Notes under the pieces: generated by a model | Seen by the model: only the letters and a program-made list of their open reading frames with translations | Database searches by the model: none | Told to the model about the DNA's origin: nothing | Origin: an uncultured virus (IMG/VR IMGVR_UViG_3300042196_000264) | Lineage: Duplodnaviria > Heunggongvirae > Uroviricota > Caudoviricetes | DNA: 64,000 nt | Virus record (IMG/VR): IMGVR_UViG_3300042196_000264 | Strand: one strand, 5' to 3' | Part shown: positions 31,058-49,825 of the stretch, one piece after another | Layout of the letters: every line of letters starts with the position of its first letter | How positions within the stretch are numbered: the stretch's first letter is position 1 | Translations under genes and position numbers: made by a program

Positions 31058-31294
31058 ATGAAGCGCTTCGCACCATCCATCCTTCTGATCCCACTCCTGT
31101 TCTCCTGCGACCAGAAGGCAGCCAAGGCCGTCAGCTGCGCTGTCGCAGACGAGAAGCTCTCCGTCGCGTTCACGGATCCAGCGCGCGCGCGCGACTACCT
31201 GACAAGGCTTGCCGACCGTCTCGAGTCTGGTGAGCCCAAGGCAGCCGGGGAAGCGGCCGAGTTGGTGGCCACCATCGTCGAGTGCCTGCGCTGA
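31058..31294 (+). CDS. Small lipoprotein, copy 1
   Basis: MKRF...LLFSC lipobox-like; TACACT 6 nt upstream of ATG. Confidence 0.7.
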   Translation: MKRFAPSILLIPLLFSCDQKAAKAVSCAVADEKLSVAFTDPARARDYLTRLADRLESGEPKAAGEAAELVATIVECLR

Positions 31295-31376
31295 CCTTCG
31301 TCAAGCTGTTTGGCTCATGATCAGAAGACCAAGCTCCTCGGGGCATACCCCTCGGAGGACGAATCAGAGGATCGAA

Positions 31377-33326: not shown

Positions 33327-33424
33327 CTGGGTTTAACTTCTCGTTTTAAGGCCACATCGACGACCATGCATCCTCTACGAGGCGAGAACTAAGCCGTGTT
33401 GAGGACGGGGCCGAGGTCGTCCTG

Positions 33425-33873
33425 CTTGGATCTTCGTGTGCGAGAGTCGGTATGCGTAGGGGTGGTTCCTTGGTTCTTCGTGTGCGAGAGAAGAGTGTTG
33501 CGGTGTCTCGAGCCACATCGACCGCCCATCCGCGCCAGCGACCGAGCAGCTTGGATCTTCGTGTGAGAGAGAAGAGCGTTGCGAGAGGTACGCCATGGGG
33601 TCCACGTCGTTGAGCGCGCATGCTTGGATCTTCGTGTGAGAGAGAAGAGCGTTGCGAGTAGGCAGAGCTTCCGTCGAGAGTGGGGCTCTGGAACTTGGAT
33701 CTTCGTGTGAGAGAGAAGAGCGTTGCGAGGCGAGAAATCGGGGATCCTCCGATGGGCCATGGAGGCTTGGATCTTCGTGTGAGAGAGAAGAGCGTTGCGA
33801 GGAGGAAGAGGCCATGAGACTGTTTTCGCAGCAAGTCCTTGGATCTTCGTGTGAGAGAGAAGAGCGTTGCGAG
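33425..33873 (-). CRISPR. CRISPR array 1: 5 intact repeats plus 1 degenerate and 1 truncated
   Basis: Repeat (minus sense) CTCGCAACGCTCTTCTCTCTCACACGAAGATCCAAG at 33550, 33623, 33694, 33766 and 33838; 35-37 nt spacers; decay at the left end. Confidence 0.95.
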
Positions 33874-33983
33874 TGGCCCCCTACTGGTGCACGTGCGAGG
33901 TGCTGGGGCCGTCGGCACCTGCGCATCATGGCACGCGGGGCCAGGGCGCGTCAACGCCCGGTCTTGCGTGCTAGTGCAAACCA
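33874..33983 (-). promoter_or_regulatory. Leader/promoter of array 1
   Basis: Minus strand TTTGCACTAGCACGCAAG box, then TTGACG-N18-CATGAT with a TG extension; homologous to the other two leaders. Confidence 0.8.
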
Positions 33984-34012
33984 TAGCCGGAGTTCATACA
34001 CTCCAACAACCC

Positions 34013-34246
34013 ATGAAGTCCCTCACGATCGTCCTCGCAGCGCTCCTCATCTCCTCTTGCGACCAGAAGGCAGCCAAGGCCGTCAGCTGCGCGATCGCGG
34101 ATGAGAAGCTCTCCGTCGCGTTTACGGATCCTGCACGAGCGCGCGACTATCTCACGAGACTCGCCGACCGACTGAAGACTGGCGAGCCCAAGGCCGCTGG
34201 AGAAGCAGCCGAGCTCGTGGCCACGAGCGTCGAGTGCCTACGATGA
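34013..34246 (+). CDS. Small lipoprotein, copy 2
   Basis: Mature part nearly identical to ORF 31058; LISSC; TACACT upstream. Confidence 0.7.
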   Translation: MKSLTIVLAALLISSCDQKAAKAVSCAIADEKLSVAFTDPARARDYLTRLADRLKTGEPKAAGEAAELVATSVECLR

Positions 34247-34565
34247 CACATGACGGCTAGATGACCCACGGACGATCGAGCAGCCAGACTTCCCAGGCCC
34301 ATGACGCGATCTGATTGCTGACCGATTTTGTTCCATCCAGCCGGCACCCGAACGCTCGCACGTGGCCTGCAGAGTACTTCCCGTGGGCCTCGCGGACCAG
34401 GAACGCCAACACATCCTGCCAACTTTTGCCATGGACCCTGGCGTAGTAGGTGGACGGTACGGACCCGTCCAGAACATCCGTACAGTCACGCAGTTCGACG
34501 CCATTGATGTGCGTGATTGTGACGTGCCTGCGCCCGCGCTTGCCAGATTTCTTCATCGAAGGTCC

Positions 34566-35992: not shown

Positions 35993-36559
35993 GTGCCAGT
36001 CCTCGACCCCAGGCCATGGTTCTTCGACTACCAGCTGGCCCCCTGGCTCTCGGCCCTCCAACTCCGGGCCCACCTCGTCCACCACGCCGGGTACGTGAGC
36101 GAGGTGCGGGCCGCGGGGGACTTTGACGGGCTCGAGTCCGCCCTCGAGGAGGGGAGACGGGCGAACAACCTCAAGCTGATCCGTGCCGCCAACCAGGCAT
36201 GGAACCATCACATGCTCTGGCTCTCGCTCTCGCCGCGCGGCGGCGAGGTCCCGAAGCGCGGGCTCCTCGCCCAGACGAACGATATCTCGTCGAAGCTTCG
36301 CGCGGCGGCGATGGATGTCTGGGGCTCAGGCTGGGCATGGGTGACGCTCTACAAGAACAAGATCCGAGCGGTCTCGACACCGACGGATGAGAGGTGCCCT
36401 GGGTATCCTCTCCTATGCGTGGACATGTGGGAGCACGCCTACTACCTCGACTACATCGGAGATCGCGAACGGTACGTCGCAGAGATCATCATGAACCTCG
36501 TCAACTGGGAGTTCGCGGACATGCGGCTGAACGGGTTCGTCCCAGAGGAGTTGAGATGA
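35993..36559 (+). CDS. sod: Fe/Mn superoxide dismutase
   Basis: HHAGYV, WNH, GSGWAW and DMWEHAYY; all four metal ligands present; AAGGAG RBS. Confidence 0.9.
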   Translation: MPVLDPRPWFFDYQLAPWLSALQLRAHLVHHAGYVSEVRAAGDFDGLESALEEGRRANNLKLIRAANQAWNHHMLWLSLSPRGGEVPKRGLLAQTNDISSKLRAAAMDVWGSGWAWVTLYKNKIRAVSTPTDERCPGYPLLCVDMWEHAYYLDYIGDRERYVAEIIMNLVNWEFADMRLNGFVPEELR

Positions 36560-38297: not shown

Positions 38298-38373
38298 TGG
38301 TGCTCTCGGAAGGACTTGAACCTCCGACGCTCGGCACTTCAAGCCGACGCTCTACCAACTGAGCTACGAGAGC
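38298..38373 (-). tRNA. tRNA-Phe (GAA) with encoded CCA
   Basis: 76-nt cloverleaf: acceptor GCTCTCG/CGAGAGC-ACCA, anticodon arm TCGGC-TTGAAGT-GCCGA, T loop TTCAAGT. Confidence 0.93.
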
Positions 38374-38407
38374 TTTGCGATTGACGACGGGCCACCACGA
38401 GGAAGTA

Positions 38408-39385
38408 CTTGGATCTTCGTGTGAGGAAGATGTGTGTTGCGAGTGCGCACGAGGTCGACGTCCTGCCAACGGAGCGCCCTCCTGGATCTTCGTGTGAGGA
38501 AGAAGTGTGTTGCGAGATGGCGACCTCCGGTTGTCCCGTGAGGTACCGGGGGCTTGGATCTTCGTGTGAGGAAGAAGTGTGTTGCGAGTACCGCGCTACC
38601 GCCTCCTCCTTCCGCACCGCGTTCCTTGGATCTTCGTGTGAGGAAGAAGTGTGTTGCGAGTGGGGCGGGGCTATCATGCGGGTGCACGGCTGTGGATCTT
38701 GGATCTTCGTGTGAGGAAGATGTGTGTTGCGAGAGGGCGGTGGGTGCCTGCGGTACCTGGGACATGCCCACTTGGATCTTCGTGTGAGGAAGAAGTGCGT
38801 TGCGAGGTGACGCGAGCTTGCCGACGAAGCTCCGGTCCGAGACTTGGATCTTCGTGTGAGGAAGAAGTGCGTTGCGAGTGCAGACACCGGGTTGCCAGGT
38901 CGCGGTGTACGGACTTGGATCTTCGTGTGAGGAAGAAGTGTGTTGCGAGACCGGCGCTCTGGATAAGCGTATTCCAGCTTGACGTCTTGGATCTTCGTGT
39001 GAGGAAGAAGTGTGTTGCGAGGCTGGCTGGGCGAGCGCGCTCGCGGGCAGCGTCATCTTGGATCTTCGTGTGAGGAAGAAGTGTGTTGCGAGTTGTGCTC
39101 GCCCGCACTCGGCCTCCCAGCCATTCCTGCTTGGATCTTCGTGTGAGGAAGAAGTGTGTTGCGAGCTGCGTCGGGATGGCCTGGGACGGGGTGGCATGGC
39201 CGGCTTGGATCTTCGTGTGAGGAAGAAGTGTGTTGCGAGCTGACGACCACCGAGACCCACTCCCTGACGGGGGAGCTCTTGGATCTTCGTGTGAGGAAGA
39301 AGTGTGTTGCGAGTTCGAGCCTTTTCGCGTGAGCCTGGGAGTACTCGTCCTTGGATCTTCGTGTGAGGAAGAAGTGTGTTGCGAG
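38408..39385 (-). CRISPR. CRISPR array 2: 14 repeats, 13 spacers
   Basis: Repeat (minus sense) CTCGCAACACACTTCTTCCTCACACGAAGATCCAAG; 35-38 nt unique spacers. Confidence 0.97.
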
Positions 39386-39493
39386 AGCCACCCTGTTGCC
39401 ACGCTGGCGTGGTGATGAGGCAGTCGGCACATGCGCAGGATGGCACGCGACGTCTGAGTGCGTCAACCCCCGGCCTTGCGTGCTAGTGCAAAG
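39386..39493 (-). promoter_or_regulatory. Leader/promoter of array 2
   Basis: Same box, then TTGACG-N18-CATCCT. Confidence 0.8.
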
Positions 39494-39501
39494 TGAGGTG
39501 C

Positions 39502-45539: not shown

Positions 45540-46597
45540 CTTGGATCTTAGTGTGAGAAAGAAGTGTGTTGCGAGCGCAGCGACGGAGCGTCTGCCGCTG
45601 CTTCATCAGGTCCTGGATCTTCGTGTGAGGAAGAAGTGTGTTGCGAGGCGAACTCTACGGCCGCCCCCAGAGGTCTCGTCTGGCCTGGATCTTCGTGTGA
45701 GGAAGAAGTGCGTTGCGAGTCGGCGCCACGTCGGTGATCGTGAGTAGTGGATCGGTGTCCCTGGATCTTCGTGTGAGGAAGAAGTGTGTTGCGAGGCACC
45801 ATCCTGGGTCCGCTGGTGAAATATCACCGTCCTGGATCTTCGTGTGAGGAAGAAGTGTGTTGCGAGCCGAGACGATCCAGGCGGGGCTCCTGGACATCCT
45901 GCTCCTGGATCTTCGTGTGAGGAAGAAGTGTGTTGCGAGAAGGCATGATCAGCTTTGAGGCCACAGCGAACGCCATCCCTGGATCTTCGTGTGAGGAAGA
46001 AGTGTGTTGCGAGTACTCGCTCGCGCAGGTCGTGGAGGCCCTTGGGTCCCCTGGATCTTCGTGTGAGGAAGAAGTTGTGCTGCAAAGCCGTGCCCGTGAG
46101 CCCCCAGAGGAAGAGCGTACAGCGGCCTGGATCTTCGTGTGAGGAAGAAGTGTGCTGCAAGTCCAAGCCCGCCACGGTGCAGCTTGTCCTGTTTGGGCCT
46201 GGATCTTCGTGTGAGGAAGATGTGCGTTGCGAGTTCGCCCTGACGTTCGGCACCCTGCCCACGATGCGATACCTGGATCTTCGTGTGAGGAAGAAGTGTG
46301 TTGCGAGCGGGCAGGCCTGGATCGCGGTCGAGGGGGCAGGACGGGCCCTGGATCTTCGTGTGAGGAAGAAGTGTGTTGCGAGACTGCGCCCCCTGCGCCG
46401 GGCGCAGAAACGGTGGCACCTGGATCTTCGTGTGAGGAAGAAGTGTGTTGCGAGACGATCGTGGTGAACGGCCGGGAGATGCAGGTCGACCTGGATCTTC
46501 GTGTGAGGAAGAAGTGTGTTGCGAGGAGGATACGGGCGTGCGGTTGGCCGCGGACTGCATTCCTGGATCTTCGTGTGAGGAAGAAGTGTGTTGCGAG
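45540..46597 (-). CRISPR. CRISPR array 3: 15 repeats, 14 spacers
   Basis: Repeat (minus sense) CTCGCAACACACTTCTTCCTCACACGAAGATCCAGG; 35-40 nt spacers; degenerate leftmost repeat. Confidence 0.97.
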
Positions 46598-46707
46598 GGC
46601 CCCACTGTTGCCACGCTAGCATGGTACTGGGACCGTCGGCACTTGCGCAGGATGGCACGCGACGTCTGAGCGCGTCAAGGGCCGGTCTTGCGTGCTAGTG
46701 CAAAACC
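46598..46707 (-). promoter_or_regulatory. Leader/promoter of array 3, divergent from the effector gene
   Basis: Same box, then TTGACG-N18-CATCCT. Confidence 0.8.
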
Positions 46708-46783
46708 ATTCGCTAGAGCAAAGATCATGGGCGTGTCGATTTTCGCTTGTAGCTTTCCGTTCGGGACGGTAAGAAGCCCTCAC

Positions 46784-48586
46784 GTGGTCGACGCGAAACC
46801 AGACGCCAAGAAGGGCGTGCGCAGCAGGCTCCTCGAAGAGAAGAAGTCTCGGCGGGAGGCAGCGCTGCAGGACGGGCTCATGTGCGTGTACCAAGCGTAC
46901 AAGTACGAGATCCGTGAACGCTCGCCAGGACAGTTCCAGTTGCTGGCCAGGCACGCTGGCCTGAGCAGGTTCGCGAAAAACTGGTCGCTCCGGTTCTGGG
47001 TCAAGGAGCGAGAGGAGTTCGAGCGCGCGCGCGAACACATCAAGCTGCTGAAACTCGATGGATCCGCGGAAGCGGGCATCGCAGAGATCCAGAAGGTGCT
47101 TGACGAAGCCGTGAGGTCCTACTGGAGCTCGGCCATCCATGAGTCGTGGACGAAGGAAGCCCGCGATGTCGTGGACGAGATCGTGGCGTCCGCTCCGTTC
47201 GCCATCGTTCTGAACCTCGAACAGCAGCAGGAGAAGAGGGAGAAGATCGCGAAGGCGAAGGCAAAGGAAGCGGCGAAAAAGGCGAAGGAGGCGGCGAAGA
47301 GGTCTGCTTCCTCCCGCCGCAGCGTGGGCAGGCTCCGATCTGCAGCTCTTCCAGAAAAGGAAAAGGAAGAGGACAAGCCGCTGGAGATCGTAGAGCATCG
47401 GCGCACCCCTCTTGGGCTGCTGTCGAGGCTGTGGACGCAAACCGTCAAGCAGGTCTGCGTGAGCAGGGAGGATGGAAGCTTCTGGGCTGCGGGCCTGACC
47501 AGATGGGCCGCACAGGGTGCCCTCATCGCCACGGACGGAGCCTATTTCACGCACTTCAAAGCCCGTGCCAAGGCCAATCGTGGAGAGCTCTCTCGCGACG
47601 CAGTCCCAGGGCTCCCGACCTTCAAGAAGCGTAACGGGAAGAAGTCGTTCGCGGTCCAGTACTCGGGCGTCAAGTTGCCGCACGACGATGCGTCCCTTCG
47701 ACCCGATGAGGTGAAGGTCCAGGGCGTTGGAGTCGTAAGGCTCTACGAAGGACTGCAGAAGTTCCAGGGGACGATCAAGGCTGTCTCGGTCTCGAGCGAG
47801 GTTCGCGGCCGCTGGTGGATCTCGTTCACCGTCGAACGGACGCGACCGATCCCACGGCGTCGGCCGCAACCACGGGTAGGCGTCGACCTCGGAGCCAGGG
47901 ACACGATCACGCTCTCCGACGGCGTGGCGCACGAGCGCTCCTGGGAGGCTCCGAAACCGCTCGCCAACTCGCTCAAGAGGTTGCGTCGTCTCAGCAGGGC
48001 CCAGAGTCGTCGGAGAAAACCGTCGTGGGATAAGGAGACGCATGAGACCCTCGTCGAGGGGAGCAGCGGTTGGTACAAGGCTCGCCTCGAGGTCGCCAAG
48101 CTCAATTTCAAGATCGCGTGCCAGCGGCGGAACTGGCTCCACAACGTCACCACCGAGATCGCGAAGACGTACACCGACATCGTCATCGAGGGGTACAACG
48201 CCCGCGAGCTCGTGAAGAAGTCTCGCAAGGTCGTGAAGACGAAGGAGGGCCGTCGTAACATGGCCGACTCCGCAGTGGGGATGGCGCGATGGATGCTCAA
48301 GTACAAAGGTGACTGGTACGGGTGCCACGTCACCGTCGCCGACTCCAAGCTCCCCGCGAACAAGACCTGCTCCGTGTGCGGATGGGTGTCCCAACGCACG
48401 CAGTCCAAGAGGATCTACAAGTGTGATGCCTGCGGACAGCAGTGCATCAGGCCGATCAACACGGCAAGGTTTCTCGCTCGGTTTCGGCCAGGTGAGGAAG
48501 GACCGGCTATGGAATCCGGTCCCAAACTGGGTGGAGAGGACAAGCTAGCCCCGTCGGAAACGGCGGACGTGATGCCTCCTCCGTGA
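46784..48586 (+). CDS. tnpB: CRISPR-associated TnpB/Cas12-like RNA-guided protein, probably nuclease-dead
   Basis: AYKYEI...LLARHAG.SRF..NW, PTFKKR, GVDLG (RuvC-I), IVIEG (RuvC-II), CSVCG...CDACG zinc finger; RuvC-III reads IRPINTA in place of DRDxNAA; likely GTG start, about 600 aa. Confidence 0.88.
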   Translation: MVDAKPDAKKGVRSRLLEEKKSRREAALQDGLMCVYQAYKYEIRERSPGQFQLLARHAGLSRFAKNWSLRFWVKEREEFERAREHIKLLKLDGSAEAGIAEIQKVLDEAVRSYWSSAIHESWTKEARDVVDEIVASAPFAIVLNLEQQQEKREKIAKAKAKEAAKKAKEAAKRSASSRRSVGRLRSAALPEKEKEEDKPLEIVEHRRTPLGLLSRLWTQTVKQVCVSREDGSFWAAGLTRWAAQGALIATDGAYFTHFKARAKANRGELSRDAVPGLPTFKKRNGKKSFAVQYSGVKLPHDDASLRPDEVKVQGVGVVRLYEGLQKFQGTIKAVSVSSEVRGRWWISFTVERTRPIPRRRPQPRVGVDLGARDTITLSDGVAHERSWEAPKPLANSLKRLRRLSRAQSRRRKPSWDKETHETLVEGSSGWYKARLEVAKLNFKIACQRRNWLHNVTTEIAKTYTDIVIEGYNARELVKKSRKVVKTKEGRRNMADSAVGMARWMLKYKGDWYGCHVTVADSKLPANKTCSVCGWVSQRTQSKRIYKCDACGQQCIRPINTARFLARFRPGEEGPAMESGPKLGGEDKLAPSETADVMPPP

Positions 48587-48646
48587 AGCCCGGACTTCGT
48601 GTGAACTGCTTCGCCTCCCGGCAGGTAAATCTCGGGAGGCACTTTT
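48500..48646 (+). ncRNA. Putative tracrRNA derived from an omega-RNA scaffold
   Basis: Nested hairpins overlapping the gene end; CTTCGTGTGA at 48595-48604 is complementary to the crRNA repeat; 5' end uncertain. Confidence 0.75.
48613..48646 (+). terminator. Terminator after the putative tracrRNA
   Basis: GCCTCCCG...CGGGAGGC followed by ACTTTT. Confidence 0.7.
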
Positions 48647-49698
48647 CACGCTCGACGCTTGCGTAGGCGCGAGACTTGAGCACCGCTTCCGCGGGAATGC
48701 TTTCCAGATCCCTTCTTGCTCGGAGAACCGTGGATCAGGATCTCCTCCAACTCGTCGACCAACTTGCGAGGGGAACTCGTCCTGGCGTCGTCGTAGCGCT
48801 GCAGCATCGCTACTCCTGCGTGGCGTGTGAGCCTGGAAACGTCGCGGAGGTTTCCGTCCGTCATGTCCAGAGCGGTCGTCGCCCCGGTGTGACGCAACCC
48901 GTGTGGACGGATCCGCTTTCCATGCGAAGCGCTGATCCTGTCGAAGAGCCGCCTGACCGCAGCGATCGTCAACCTCTTCCCGCTGGACCTGTTTCCGAGC
49001 GTGATGAAGAGCGGGCCTTTCTCCTTCCCGCGGATCGCGAGCCATGCACGGATCGCATCCGCCGTCATCGCGCCGATCGGAAACCAAGATTTCTCACGCT
49101 TGCCCTTCCCGCGGAAGCGGATCTGCGGTTCCTTGCCGAGGTCCAGGTCTTCCGGGAAGTCGATGGCGAGCGGCTCCATCCGGCGCAGCAGGCAGGTCGA
49201 GTAGATCCTGACGAGCGCGAGGTCCCGGGTCGCCAGTGGGTCCCCCGCCGTCGCCAGTCTCGCGAGCTCGGCGTCGATTTCCCGGACGGACGTCGCCCCG
49301 GGGCCCGAGGGGTCACGCTTGGCCTCGTGGCGGACGCTGTCCACCTCGAGGGTCCAGGAGCAGAGGCCCAGGAGCCTGGCGACCCGCAGGAACGCATTCA
49401 GGCTGGCCAGCCTGCGGTTCACCGTGGAGCTGGCCAGGCCCGCCTCGCGGGCCTCGTCCCGCCACTCCAGCACGAGGGCGTTGGCCTCGGGTCCGGGGCG
49501 GCTGAGCAGGTCTGCGAGGGCGGACCTGGCGTCCGGGGTGCCCATGAACGCCGCCAGCGAGCGGAAGTCCCGTTCGTACTCGGCCGCCGAGGCCTTGGAG
49601 AGGCTGGCCAGGAGCCGTTCGTAGGCCCCGCTGCTGGGGCGCCTTGCGGCCTGGCGGGGGACTACGGCGGCGACGGGGGGCAGCTTGGCTGGGAGCAC
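48646..49698 (-). CDS. Tyrosine recombinase/integrase
   Basis: STVNRRLASL, RDLAL, LRRME, GKG, HGLRH, TRH, QRYDD; catalytic set intact; likely GTG start at 49698. Confidence 0.92.
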   Translation of the reverse strand: MLPAKLPPVAAVVPRQAARRPSSGAYERLLASLSKASAAEYERDFRSLAAFMGTPDARSALADLLSRPGPEANALVLEWRDEAREAGLASSTVNRRLASLNAFLRVARLLGLCSWTLEVDSVRHEAKRDPSGPGATSVREIDAELARLATAGDPLATRDLALVRIYSTCLLRRMEPLAIDFPEDLDLGKEPQIRFRGKGKREKSWFPIGAMTADAIRAWLAIRGKEKGPLFITLGNRSSGKRLTIAAVRRLFDRISASHGKRIRPHGLRHTGATTALDMTDGNLRDVSRLTRHAGVAMLQRYDDARTSSPRKLVDELEEILIHGSPSKKGSGKHSRGSGAQVSRLRKRRA

Positions 49699-49825
49699 CC
49701 GGAAAGTCCTAGCACACAAAATGGAAGCCTTTGTGACCTAGGAACAGGGGTTTCCACCCCCTCAAACACGCGTAAACAGCGCGCTATCTTAGGATTCCTA
49801 TAAGAGTTATAAGGGGCCGGACATC

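Follow-up and report, generated by a model that had tools for sequence, protein, structure and literature searches.

The type V-M systems are among the closest described counterparts of the locus reported here. Their TnpB-derived effectors of about 600 amino acids are carried by mobile genetic elements (plasmids and some prophages), are described as having no adaptation genes nearby and, being nuclease-inactive, silence by binding to DNA, where they act as a roadblock to transcription or replication in conflicts between elements (PMC10442227, PMC11013384, PMC11656645). Non-canonical RuvC triads, HDD among them, are described for Cas12m (PMC10442227), and the silencing of other mobile elements by nuclease-inactive type V systems that are themselves borne on mobile elements is already known from V-M of plasmids and some prophages (PMC11656645). 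In the myxophage MV-1, a phage Cas12m of 610 amino acids with the reported residues D305, E463 and D555 is accompanied, according to its description, by one array of eight spacers, with no cas1, cas2 or cas4 and with no protospacers found (10.64898/2026.09.14.751636). Cas12f, which functions as a dimer, makes use of a tracrRNA (PMC11013384). Mini-arrays and other CRISPR loci borne by viruses and phages are described as carrying spacers against other mobile elements, in competition between elements (PMC11656645), and TldRs are nuclease-dead TnpB-like proteins that are thought to be RNA-guided repressors (PMC10705468).

The locus examined here lies in a 64-kb stretch of DNA, which is the whole stretch that was analysed and is called the window below. 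It resembles V-M in its compact TnpB-derived effector on a mobile element, in a non-canonical RuvC triad and in having no adaptation genes in the window. It differs from V-M in that the effector falls outside Cas12m by profile (Cas12u1 6.8e-7 versus Cas12u4 1.6e-50; Cas12m4a E 0.26), the triad is D-E-P and not HDD, HEK or DED, three arrays share one leader, and its binding without cutting is putative. With V-F or former V-U4 systems (Cas12f-like) and with TnpB, the effector shares its best profile matches, a zinc-finger/TNB domain and the RuvC-I and RuvC-II residues; in contrast to these active DED nucleases, it has no RuvC-III Asp. The likeness to MV-1 consists in a small phage-encoded type V effector beside a CRISPR array, no adaptation genes and no protospacers, whereas the present locus has three arrays, 30 scored spacers and a D-E-P site, the two loci being compared by description only. 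Like TldRs, the effector is a TnpB descendant that has lost a nuclease residue. Among TldRs there are some that prophages carry and that act upon genes of the host; their guide is a single omega-RNA-like RNA, unlike the many-spacer CRISPR arrays found here. Virus-borne mini-arrays, finally, mostly rely on host repeats and effectors and have related viruses as targets, whereas this phage carries an effector of its own and two spacers that read as recombinases.

What sets the present locus apart is the D-E-P effector lineage near TnpB, V-U4 and V-F, the three arrays with a common leader, and the spacers reading as transposase and integrase. A limited literature search (CRISPR spacers, IS66 and transposases; phage-encoded CRISPR) found no earlier report of a phage spacer against IS66, which is not proof of absence. 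The locus would add, in a modest way, to the cases in which one mobile element turns CRISPR against another.

Three arrays with one leader in a phage-like window

Matches to PHROG and Pfam families make the window (about 62% G+C) look like phage DNA. They comprise tail-fibre proteins, a Dda-like helicase, a sliding clamp, Gp37/Gp68 (DUF5131), GP88 and a tyrosine integrase; most of the remaining ORFs are orphans, and one tRNA-Phe is present. The phage's own integrase gene suggests a temperate lifestyle:

48646 to 49719, minus strand: tyrosine integrase of the phage, without the LRWQDVDL motif of the array 2 spacer described below

No cas1, cas2 or cas4 was found among the 70 ORFs scanned in the window. 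The window is about half of a contig of 119,894 bp, and cas1 and cas2 or further effectors may lie outside it.

A mismatch-tolerant scan of the window revealed three arrays built on one repeat family, with the following features:

33469 to 33873, minus strand: CRISPR array 1, five perfect 36-nt repeats and a degenerate one at 33469, five spacers
33423 to 33446: further repeat remnant beside array 1
33874 to 33985, minus strand: leader of array 1, conserved beside all three arrays
33954 to 33925, minus strand: sigma70-like promoter in the array 1 leader (TTGACG at 33954, 18-nt spacer, CATGAT ending at 33925), reading into the array
38408 to 39385, minus strand: CRISPR array 2, 14 repeats of a variant form (...GAGGAAGAAGTGTGTTGCGAG), 13 spacers
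about 39386 to 39495: leader of array 2, the same as that of array 1
45540 to 46597, minus strand: CRISPR array 3, 14 copies of the repeat detected, interrupted by a 112-nt gap at 46014-46125
about 46598 to 46710: leader of array 3, abutting the effector gene

The 36-nt repeat CTTGGATCTTCGTGTGAGAGAGAAGAGCGTTGCGAG is present in array 1 in five perfect copies and gave matches in none of 100 shuffles of the window. Across the three arrays 30 spacers were scored, counted without the 112-nt gap of array 3.

On their right-hand side, all three arrays have about 110 nt in common, with a mean column identity of 81%. The TTGACG box is also kept in the flank alignment of arrays 2 and 3, the promoter scan itself being of array 1 only. 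The left flanks of the three arrays show no conservation, and degenerate repeats stand at the left ends. Because of the shared right-hand leader, the array 1 promoter and these degenerate repeats, the sense of the crRNA is that of the minus strand. The same orientation had been assumed in the preliminary description, and the conserved right flank, the minus-strand promoter and the unrelated left flanks bear this assumption out. The hairpin of the repeat is silent on orientation, since it forms only a weak stem of 5 bp in either sense.

Array 2 varies between metagenome contigs, in which alternative spacers and a form without four of the units were seen; the arrays therefore turn over. A search for the repeat pattern in viral contigs (IMG/VR) gave no matches, and comparison of the arrays with phages and plasmids (blastn, megablast) returned either no match or matches at chance level only.

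IS66-like coding content of an array 1 spacer

One spacer of array 1 is the main subject of this report:

33586 to 33622, minus strand: IS66-like spacer of 37 nt, minus-strand frame (T)CALNDVDPMAYL

Perfect repeats bracket it on the left (33550-33585) and on the right (33623-33658). With these flanking repeats, with the leader and promoter of its array and with the same repeat family standing beside a Cas12-like gene in array 3, it is a genuine spacer. Counted from the leader it is number four of five, and degenerate repeats adjoin; lying near the degenerate trailer end, it may be a relic.

Translated on the minus strand, positions 33585-33620 give CALNDVDPMAYL, and all 11 complete codons of this frame carry G or C at the third position. 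The preliminary description had observed just this, an IS66-like peptide with GC-rich third positions. A frame on the opposite strand (+0) also has a GC3 of 0.92, so that GC3 alone cannot choose the frame. The third base of the last Leu codon is derived from the repeat, CTN encoding Leu regardless of that base, and the two bases CA ahead of the peptide are compatible with the end of a Thr codon.

When a query of 26-27 residues (the spacer with its repeat-derived flanks) was compared with the 24,736 models of Pfam, the sole match was PF13817, the IS66 C-terminal element. It scores 16.7 bits (E 0.0088-0.0095), below the gathering cut-off of 30 bits, and covers 16 of the 39 profile positions, the spacer fragment amounting to 12 residues. 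As a control, 157 spacer-frame peptides were used, that is, 30 spacers in six frames minus 23 frames with stop codons. Among these the IS66 match ranks best and four implausible families appear with E of 0.029, 0.064, 0.068 and 0.36; a second plausible family was not found among all spacer frames. Since 157 frames were tested, over which about one match at E 0.009 is nominally expected, and since noise reaches E 0.029-0.068, the PF13817 match alone is not significant.

Two narrower models were built from IS66 transposases. The C-terminal 128 residues of the transposase L205, used as query, gave 145 proteins at E 1e-10 or better; the best 120 of the 145 were used, and every one of these carries a precomputed PF03050. 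A clade HMM built from 116 of the 120 C-termini (four missed by the anchor pattern were left out) gives the bare spacer peptide 15.3 bits, with E 1.6e-4 over 180 spacer-frame peptides, which is 13 bits above the next best peptide at 2.2 bits. A position matrix of fixed register (PSSM), made from 58 distinct motif variants of the IS66 clade, gives CALNDVDPMAYL 41.8 bits (exact tail probability 7e-15). Of the 98,804 remaining 12-mers in the window none scores above 9.2 bits, and the next-best spacer 12-mer stands at -3.7. The scores of both models are somewhat flattered, because the models were built from relatives of L205, which had been chosen for its likeness to the spacer. Even if one allows very generously for other motifs that might have been noticed, a chance match is unlikely.

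In frame, the peptide agrees with the IS66_C motif T-[C/A]-x-L-N-[D/G]-[V/I]-[D/E]-P-x-A-[Y/W]-L, and 10 of its 12 residues are identical to L211, a metagenome gene, and to the protein P0038.

In databases, the coding pattern is found almost exclusively in IS66. Contigs taken from one genome per species contain LNDVDPxA(Y/W/C)L in at least 124 stretches, with at least 125 matches. Among the matches listed, 122 of 125 passed a strict IS66-context test, the three exceptions being an IS66-like pseudogene (L103), a match at the edge of its locus (L011) and a match with Cys that is not IS66-like (L104). PF03050 (DDE_Tnp_IS66), together with PF13817 over the motif, was present in 30 of 30 ORFs tested out of 47 ORFs of at least 300 amino acids, and the distance from the end of the motif to the stop codon of IS66 ORFs is 25-45 codons, with a mode of 33, among the matches listed. 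In viral contigs all nine pattern matches have an IS66-like context. The related pattern CxLNDVDPxAYL occurs in at least 119 stretches of metagenome contigs; of the 119 listed, the strict test accepts 113, and in the remaining six the likeness to IS66 is plain to see. The identification of the peptide with the C-terminal motif of IS66 TnpC, made in the preliminary description, is well supported by the PSSM score, the clade HMM score and this restriction of the pattern almost only to IS66. Judged by this coding content, the spacer very probably derives from the transposase gene (tnpC) of an IS66-family element.

Among the matches listed, the nearest metagenome gene is L211 (VRTCTLNDVDPVAYL), identical to the spacer at 31 of 37 nt; L237, L205 and L145 follow with 30 of 37 each. 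Four of the six mismatches between L211 and the spacer fall on third codon positions, and the other two are single G/A changes that lead to Ala/Thr and Met/Val. The consensus of the nearest clade, RTC[R/T/S/V/L/A]LNDVDP[V/I]A[Y/W]L, varies exactly at the two unusual positions of the spacer. P0050 reads RTCAL there, and P0052, whose record name is that of an IS66 transposase from a MAG of the Myxococcales, reads RTCAL...PMAY.

A pattern for the exact peptide, in which synonymous changes were allowed, had no matches in genome, viral and metagenome contigs, and no near-identical protospacer inside an IS66 element was found in these contigs searched by pattern. The best nucleotide identity to the spacer was 28/37 in genomes and viral contigs and 31/37 in metagenomes, among the matches listed and in relaxed scans of IS66-like patterns only, which cannot show that the overall best match is IS66. 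Identities of 28-31/37 are too low for targeting, and the mismatches include the repeat-proximal part. Comparison of the spacer with PLSDB by blastn gave 13 records with E between 0.03 and 5, all at chance level. The three top matches (H1-H3, E 0.03-1) lie outside IS66: the first, from Halorussus, falls in an unrelated protein (...PNDVAPGAYN...), the second, a stretch from Subdoligranulum, has no coding frame, and the third, from Embleya, is likewise not IS66. Two further matches, H4 from Bradyrhizobium (TCKLNDVNPVAYI, 24/28, E 0.4) and H5 from Sinorhizobium (TCRLNDVDPKAWL, 23/25, E 5), fall in frame on the homologous codons of IS66 tnpC.

A second spacer of the locus, placed at the trailer end of array 2, also reads as part of a recombinase:

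38444 to 38480, minus strand: trailer-most spacer of array 2, reading RALRWQDVDLVR, a tyrosine-recombinase (phage integrase) motif

The pattern LRWQDVDL occurs in 47 stretches of viral contigs, all of them in ORFs with the tyrosine-recombinase context TG(L/M)RxSE...LRWQDVDL, and PF00589 was present in 18 of 18 tested ORFs that carry it. The best identity of the spacer to these viral genes is 30/37; in Pfam it had no match with an E of 1 or below. In the 5' flanks of the homologous IS66 genes (…GCGGA, …CGAGA) or of the integrase homologues, no common motif that could serve as a PAM was found. Of the 30 spacers, two thus resemble segments of genes for the recombinases of mobile elements. This speaks for mobile DNA, rival or resident, rather than host genes as the class of target. 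The integrase-motif spacer in particular fits a target in rival mobile elements no less well than one in the host. For the probably multicopy insertion sequence of the host that the preliminary description proposed as the target, the searches gave no support.

The effector and its RuvC site

A single gene for a possible effector was detected:

46688 to 48586, plus strand: TnpB-derived Cas12-like effector, an ORF of 632 amino acids from the first start codon

Translation probably begins only at residue 65, with the ATG at 46880, which is also where the homologue P0004 starts. The effector is the sole Cas-like protein in the window, and its gene abuts array 3 and lies 13 kb from array 1. Pfam recognizes OrfB_IS605 and a TNB (Cas12f1-like) domain in it. 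PADLOC gives Cas12u4 at 1.6e-50, Cas12f at 3.7e-45 and Cas12u1 at 6.8e-7, Cas12u1 being the former name of V-M (class-name equivalences are those given in PMC11013384), and in the PDB the structures of TnpB are best, with E 2e-21 to 2e-28, as against E 0.26 for Cas12m4a. Judging from its best profile matches, the effector would be a V-U4/V-F-like Cas12 derived from TnpB. No relatives of it were found in viral contigs (IMG/VR).

The effector keeps the Asp of RuvC-I (VGVDLG) and the Glu of RuvC-II (IVIEGY). Its RuvC-III motif is altered. The catalytic D361 of ISDra2 TnpB aligns to a Pro within the effector stretch QQCIRPINTARFL, where TnpBs have xDRDxNAAxNL, and Ile takes the place of the Asp that precedes the D361 position; neither a His nor an acidic residue stands in at this site. 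In the alignment to ISDra2 TnpB the RuvC residues of the effector read D-E-P. The same stretch, Pro included, is found in P0004, which is 62% identical and the only close homologue in the protein collection.

A D-E-P site is compatible with binding without cutting and is not proof of it. Conserved replacements in RuvC-III have been described for TnpB, and such rearranged sites possibly are still active (PMC10691335), so the loss of the RuvC-III Asp does not prove inactivity. The non-cleaving effector supposed in the preliminary description is therefore plausible: the change of the third RuvC Asp to Pro, repeated in P0004, speaks for it, while the kept RuvC-I Asp and RuvC-II Glu and the possible activity described for rearranged sites speak against taking it as settled.

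Proposed mode of action and its alternatives

Our preferred reading is as follows. The phage would carry a type V CRISPR system with an old spacer taken from the 3' portion of tnpC in an element of the IS66 family, the source segment being the conserved IS66_C motif, roughly 25-45 codons before the tnpC stop. The crRNA, which corresponds in sense to the mRNA of tnpC, would find its pairing partner in the template strand of this gene. Guided by it, the D-E-P effector would bind IS66-bearing DNA and block its transcription or replication rather than cut it; given a temperate phage, not cutting would spare the lysogen that carries the insertion sequence. It is on the template strand that dCas12a represses best. 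We put the probability of the whole chain, from the IS66 tnpC origin through template-strand pairing to binding and blocking rather than cutting, at roughly 55%. It presupposes a matching copy of IS66 in the habitat of the phage, be it in the host chromosome or in a rival plasmid or prophage, use of this crRNA by the effector, and binding by the effector without cutting. The weakest links are the matching insertion sequence in the habitat of the phage, the activity of the effector and the 3'-terminal position of the target, a motif near the 3' end of tnpC being an awkward, poor site for a block of transcription. The 13 kb between the effector gene and array 1 likewise count against the chain.

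If the proposed chain is true, this would be a natural case in which a virus turns a non-cutting CRISPR effector on genes for transposases and integrases, and the silencing of plasmid by plasmid known from type IV and V-M would be extended to a conflict between phage and insertion sequence. The compact D-E-P lineage of Cas12, apart from Cas12m, would then possibly be a natural DNA binder. For now, what the spacer mainly offers is a first clue to the targets of an orphan CRISPR system of a phage, together with a definite sequence by which the host or the rival element may be traced in the same metagenomes.

A wider version can be imagined, in which a temperate soil or sediment phage would use its nuclease-impaired effector and all three arrays to silence the IS66 transposase and tyrosine integrase genes of other mobile DNA, through crRNAs of mRNA sense directed at the most conserved motif segments, and would in this way police transposition and rival integration in the lysogen without chromosome breaks. 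We regard this wider version as speculative and, taken as a whole, improbable.

The bind-and-block reading has to be weighed against the possibility that the spacer does come from IS66 and is functionless now, having been taken up as a bystander, e.g. from plasmid DNA or from abundant intermediates of transposition, through adaptation machinery supplied in trans, and having since stayed on in the oldest part of the array. Its place, fourth of five from the leader and beside degenerate repeats, would suit such a relic, as would the lack of cas1, cas2 or cas4 in the window, the absence of a target match from genome, viral and metagenome contigs, and the gain and loss of units in array 2 between metagenome contigs, which indicates that unselected turnover occurs. 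However, both flanking repeats are perfect and the leader and promoter of array 1 are intact. A second trailer-side spacer with a recombinase motif in the same sense makes the capture look less like an accident, and the absence of a target from databases is uninformative for an uncultured phage of sediment or soil. On balance a functionless spacer is unlikely.

Slightly less likely still, in our estimate, is that the effector is an active nuclease with a rearranged catalytic site, which would cut rival plasmids or prophages bearing IS66, or the host chromosome during lytic growth. The two retained catalytic residues agree with such activity, as do the best profiles, which belong to the nuclease-active lineages TnpB, Cas12f and V-U4, and the possibly active RuvC-III replacements already described (PMC10691335). 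Against it stand the replacement of the canonical Asp by Pro and of the preceding Asp by Ile, conserved in the 62%-identical homologue, and the consideration that a temperate phage would kill its own lysogen by cutting a chromosomal insertion sequence.

That the spacer comes from an unrelated source, e.g. another phage, and reads IS66-like in one frame by chance is very improbable: the low Pfam score close to noise, the lack of an identical natural sequence in genome, viral and metagenome contigs and the non-IS66 chance matches at the top of PLSDB are what such an origin would give, but against it stand the matrix score, to which nothing else in the window comes near, the clear lead of the peptide under the clade HMM, the IS66 context of the coding pattern (122-124 of 125 genome matches and 119 of 119 metagenome matches, among the matches listed, and 9 of 9 viral ones) and the mostly synonymous positions of the mismatches to the nearest genes.

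Some observations bear on where the phage lives. DNA of the window is present in sediment and soil metagenome runs. When its helicase was compared by tblastn, phages of many hosts were found at no more than 37% identity (best 15 of 1,402 records), all 1,402 records staying below 60%, and a search of GenBank found no close phage relative of the window. Named homologues of the DUF5131 protein are few and come from Planctomycetes or Nitrospinae, with 37-47% identity. The sole hint towards Myxococcota is P0052, a Myxococcales member of the broader IS66 clade.

An integrase-like spacer and a possibly excisionase-like one

In the crRNA sense, two spacers have the following conceptual translations:

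38444-38480, minus strand, trailer-most spacer of array 2, translating to RALRWQDVDLVR
45720-45759, minus strand, 40-nt spacer of array 3, translating to DTDPLLTITDVAP

Judged by its translation, the array-2 spacer reads as the LRWxDVDL box that is conserved among tyrosine recombinases. All 47 viral-contig matches to the motif pattern of this spacer fall within integrase-like ORFs, and PF00589 was present in every one of the 18 such ORFs tested. The best nucleotide identity to the spacer among these matches reached 30 of 37 positions. The LRWxDVDL-type motif is absent from the phage's own tyrosine integrase (48646-49719, minus strand). The array-3 spacer peptide has no match in Pfam; its LLT..xxA stretch may resemble the start of excisionase/AlpA-type HTH proteins.

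Array 2 and the neighbourhood of arrays 1 and 2

Metagenome contigs from two sediment/soil sequencing runs, X1 and X2, include one form of array 2 in which 290 nt (four repeat-spacer units, approximately 38407-38700) are skipped, as well as several alternative spacers of 37-40 nt located between the same repeats. Array 2 is therefore heterogeneous in nature. A tRNA gene lies immediately at its trailer end:

38298-38373, minus strand, tRNA-Phe (GAA) gene

Array 1 is flanked at a distance on both sides by a 202-nt direct repeat (31094-31295 and 34046-34247, 84% identity), the right copy of which falls inside a small ORF that encodes a lipoprotein-like signal (MKSLTIVLAALLISSC...).

Between the two arrays, at 36276-36509, contig depth exceeds that of the surroundings about 4-fold in X1, about 5-fold in X2 and more than 10-fold in a third run, X3, and many loose contig ends occur in these runs near 36420 and 36454. 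A short segment within this interval is common to many other contigs of these metagenomes.

Shared leader and effector

The three arrays and the effector gene involve the following features:

33874-33985, leader of array 1
39386-39495, leader of array 2
46598-46710, leader of array 3
46688-48586, plus strand, Cas12/TnpB-like effector

The leaders share a sequence of about 110 nt with a mean identity of 81%. A promoter scan of the array-1 leader detected a sigma70-like promoter on the minus strand. Upstream of its -35 box, all three aligned leaders carry TTTGCACTAGCACGCAAG without any change.

Among 5.8 billion proteins, the effector has a sole close homologue, P0004 (62% identity), and in both proteins the RuvC-III Asp is replaced by Pro. 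The effector further carries a Lys/Glu/Ala-rich insertion of about 130 residues (approximately residues 100-250), which its TnpB relatives lack.
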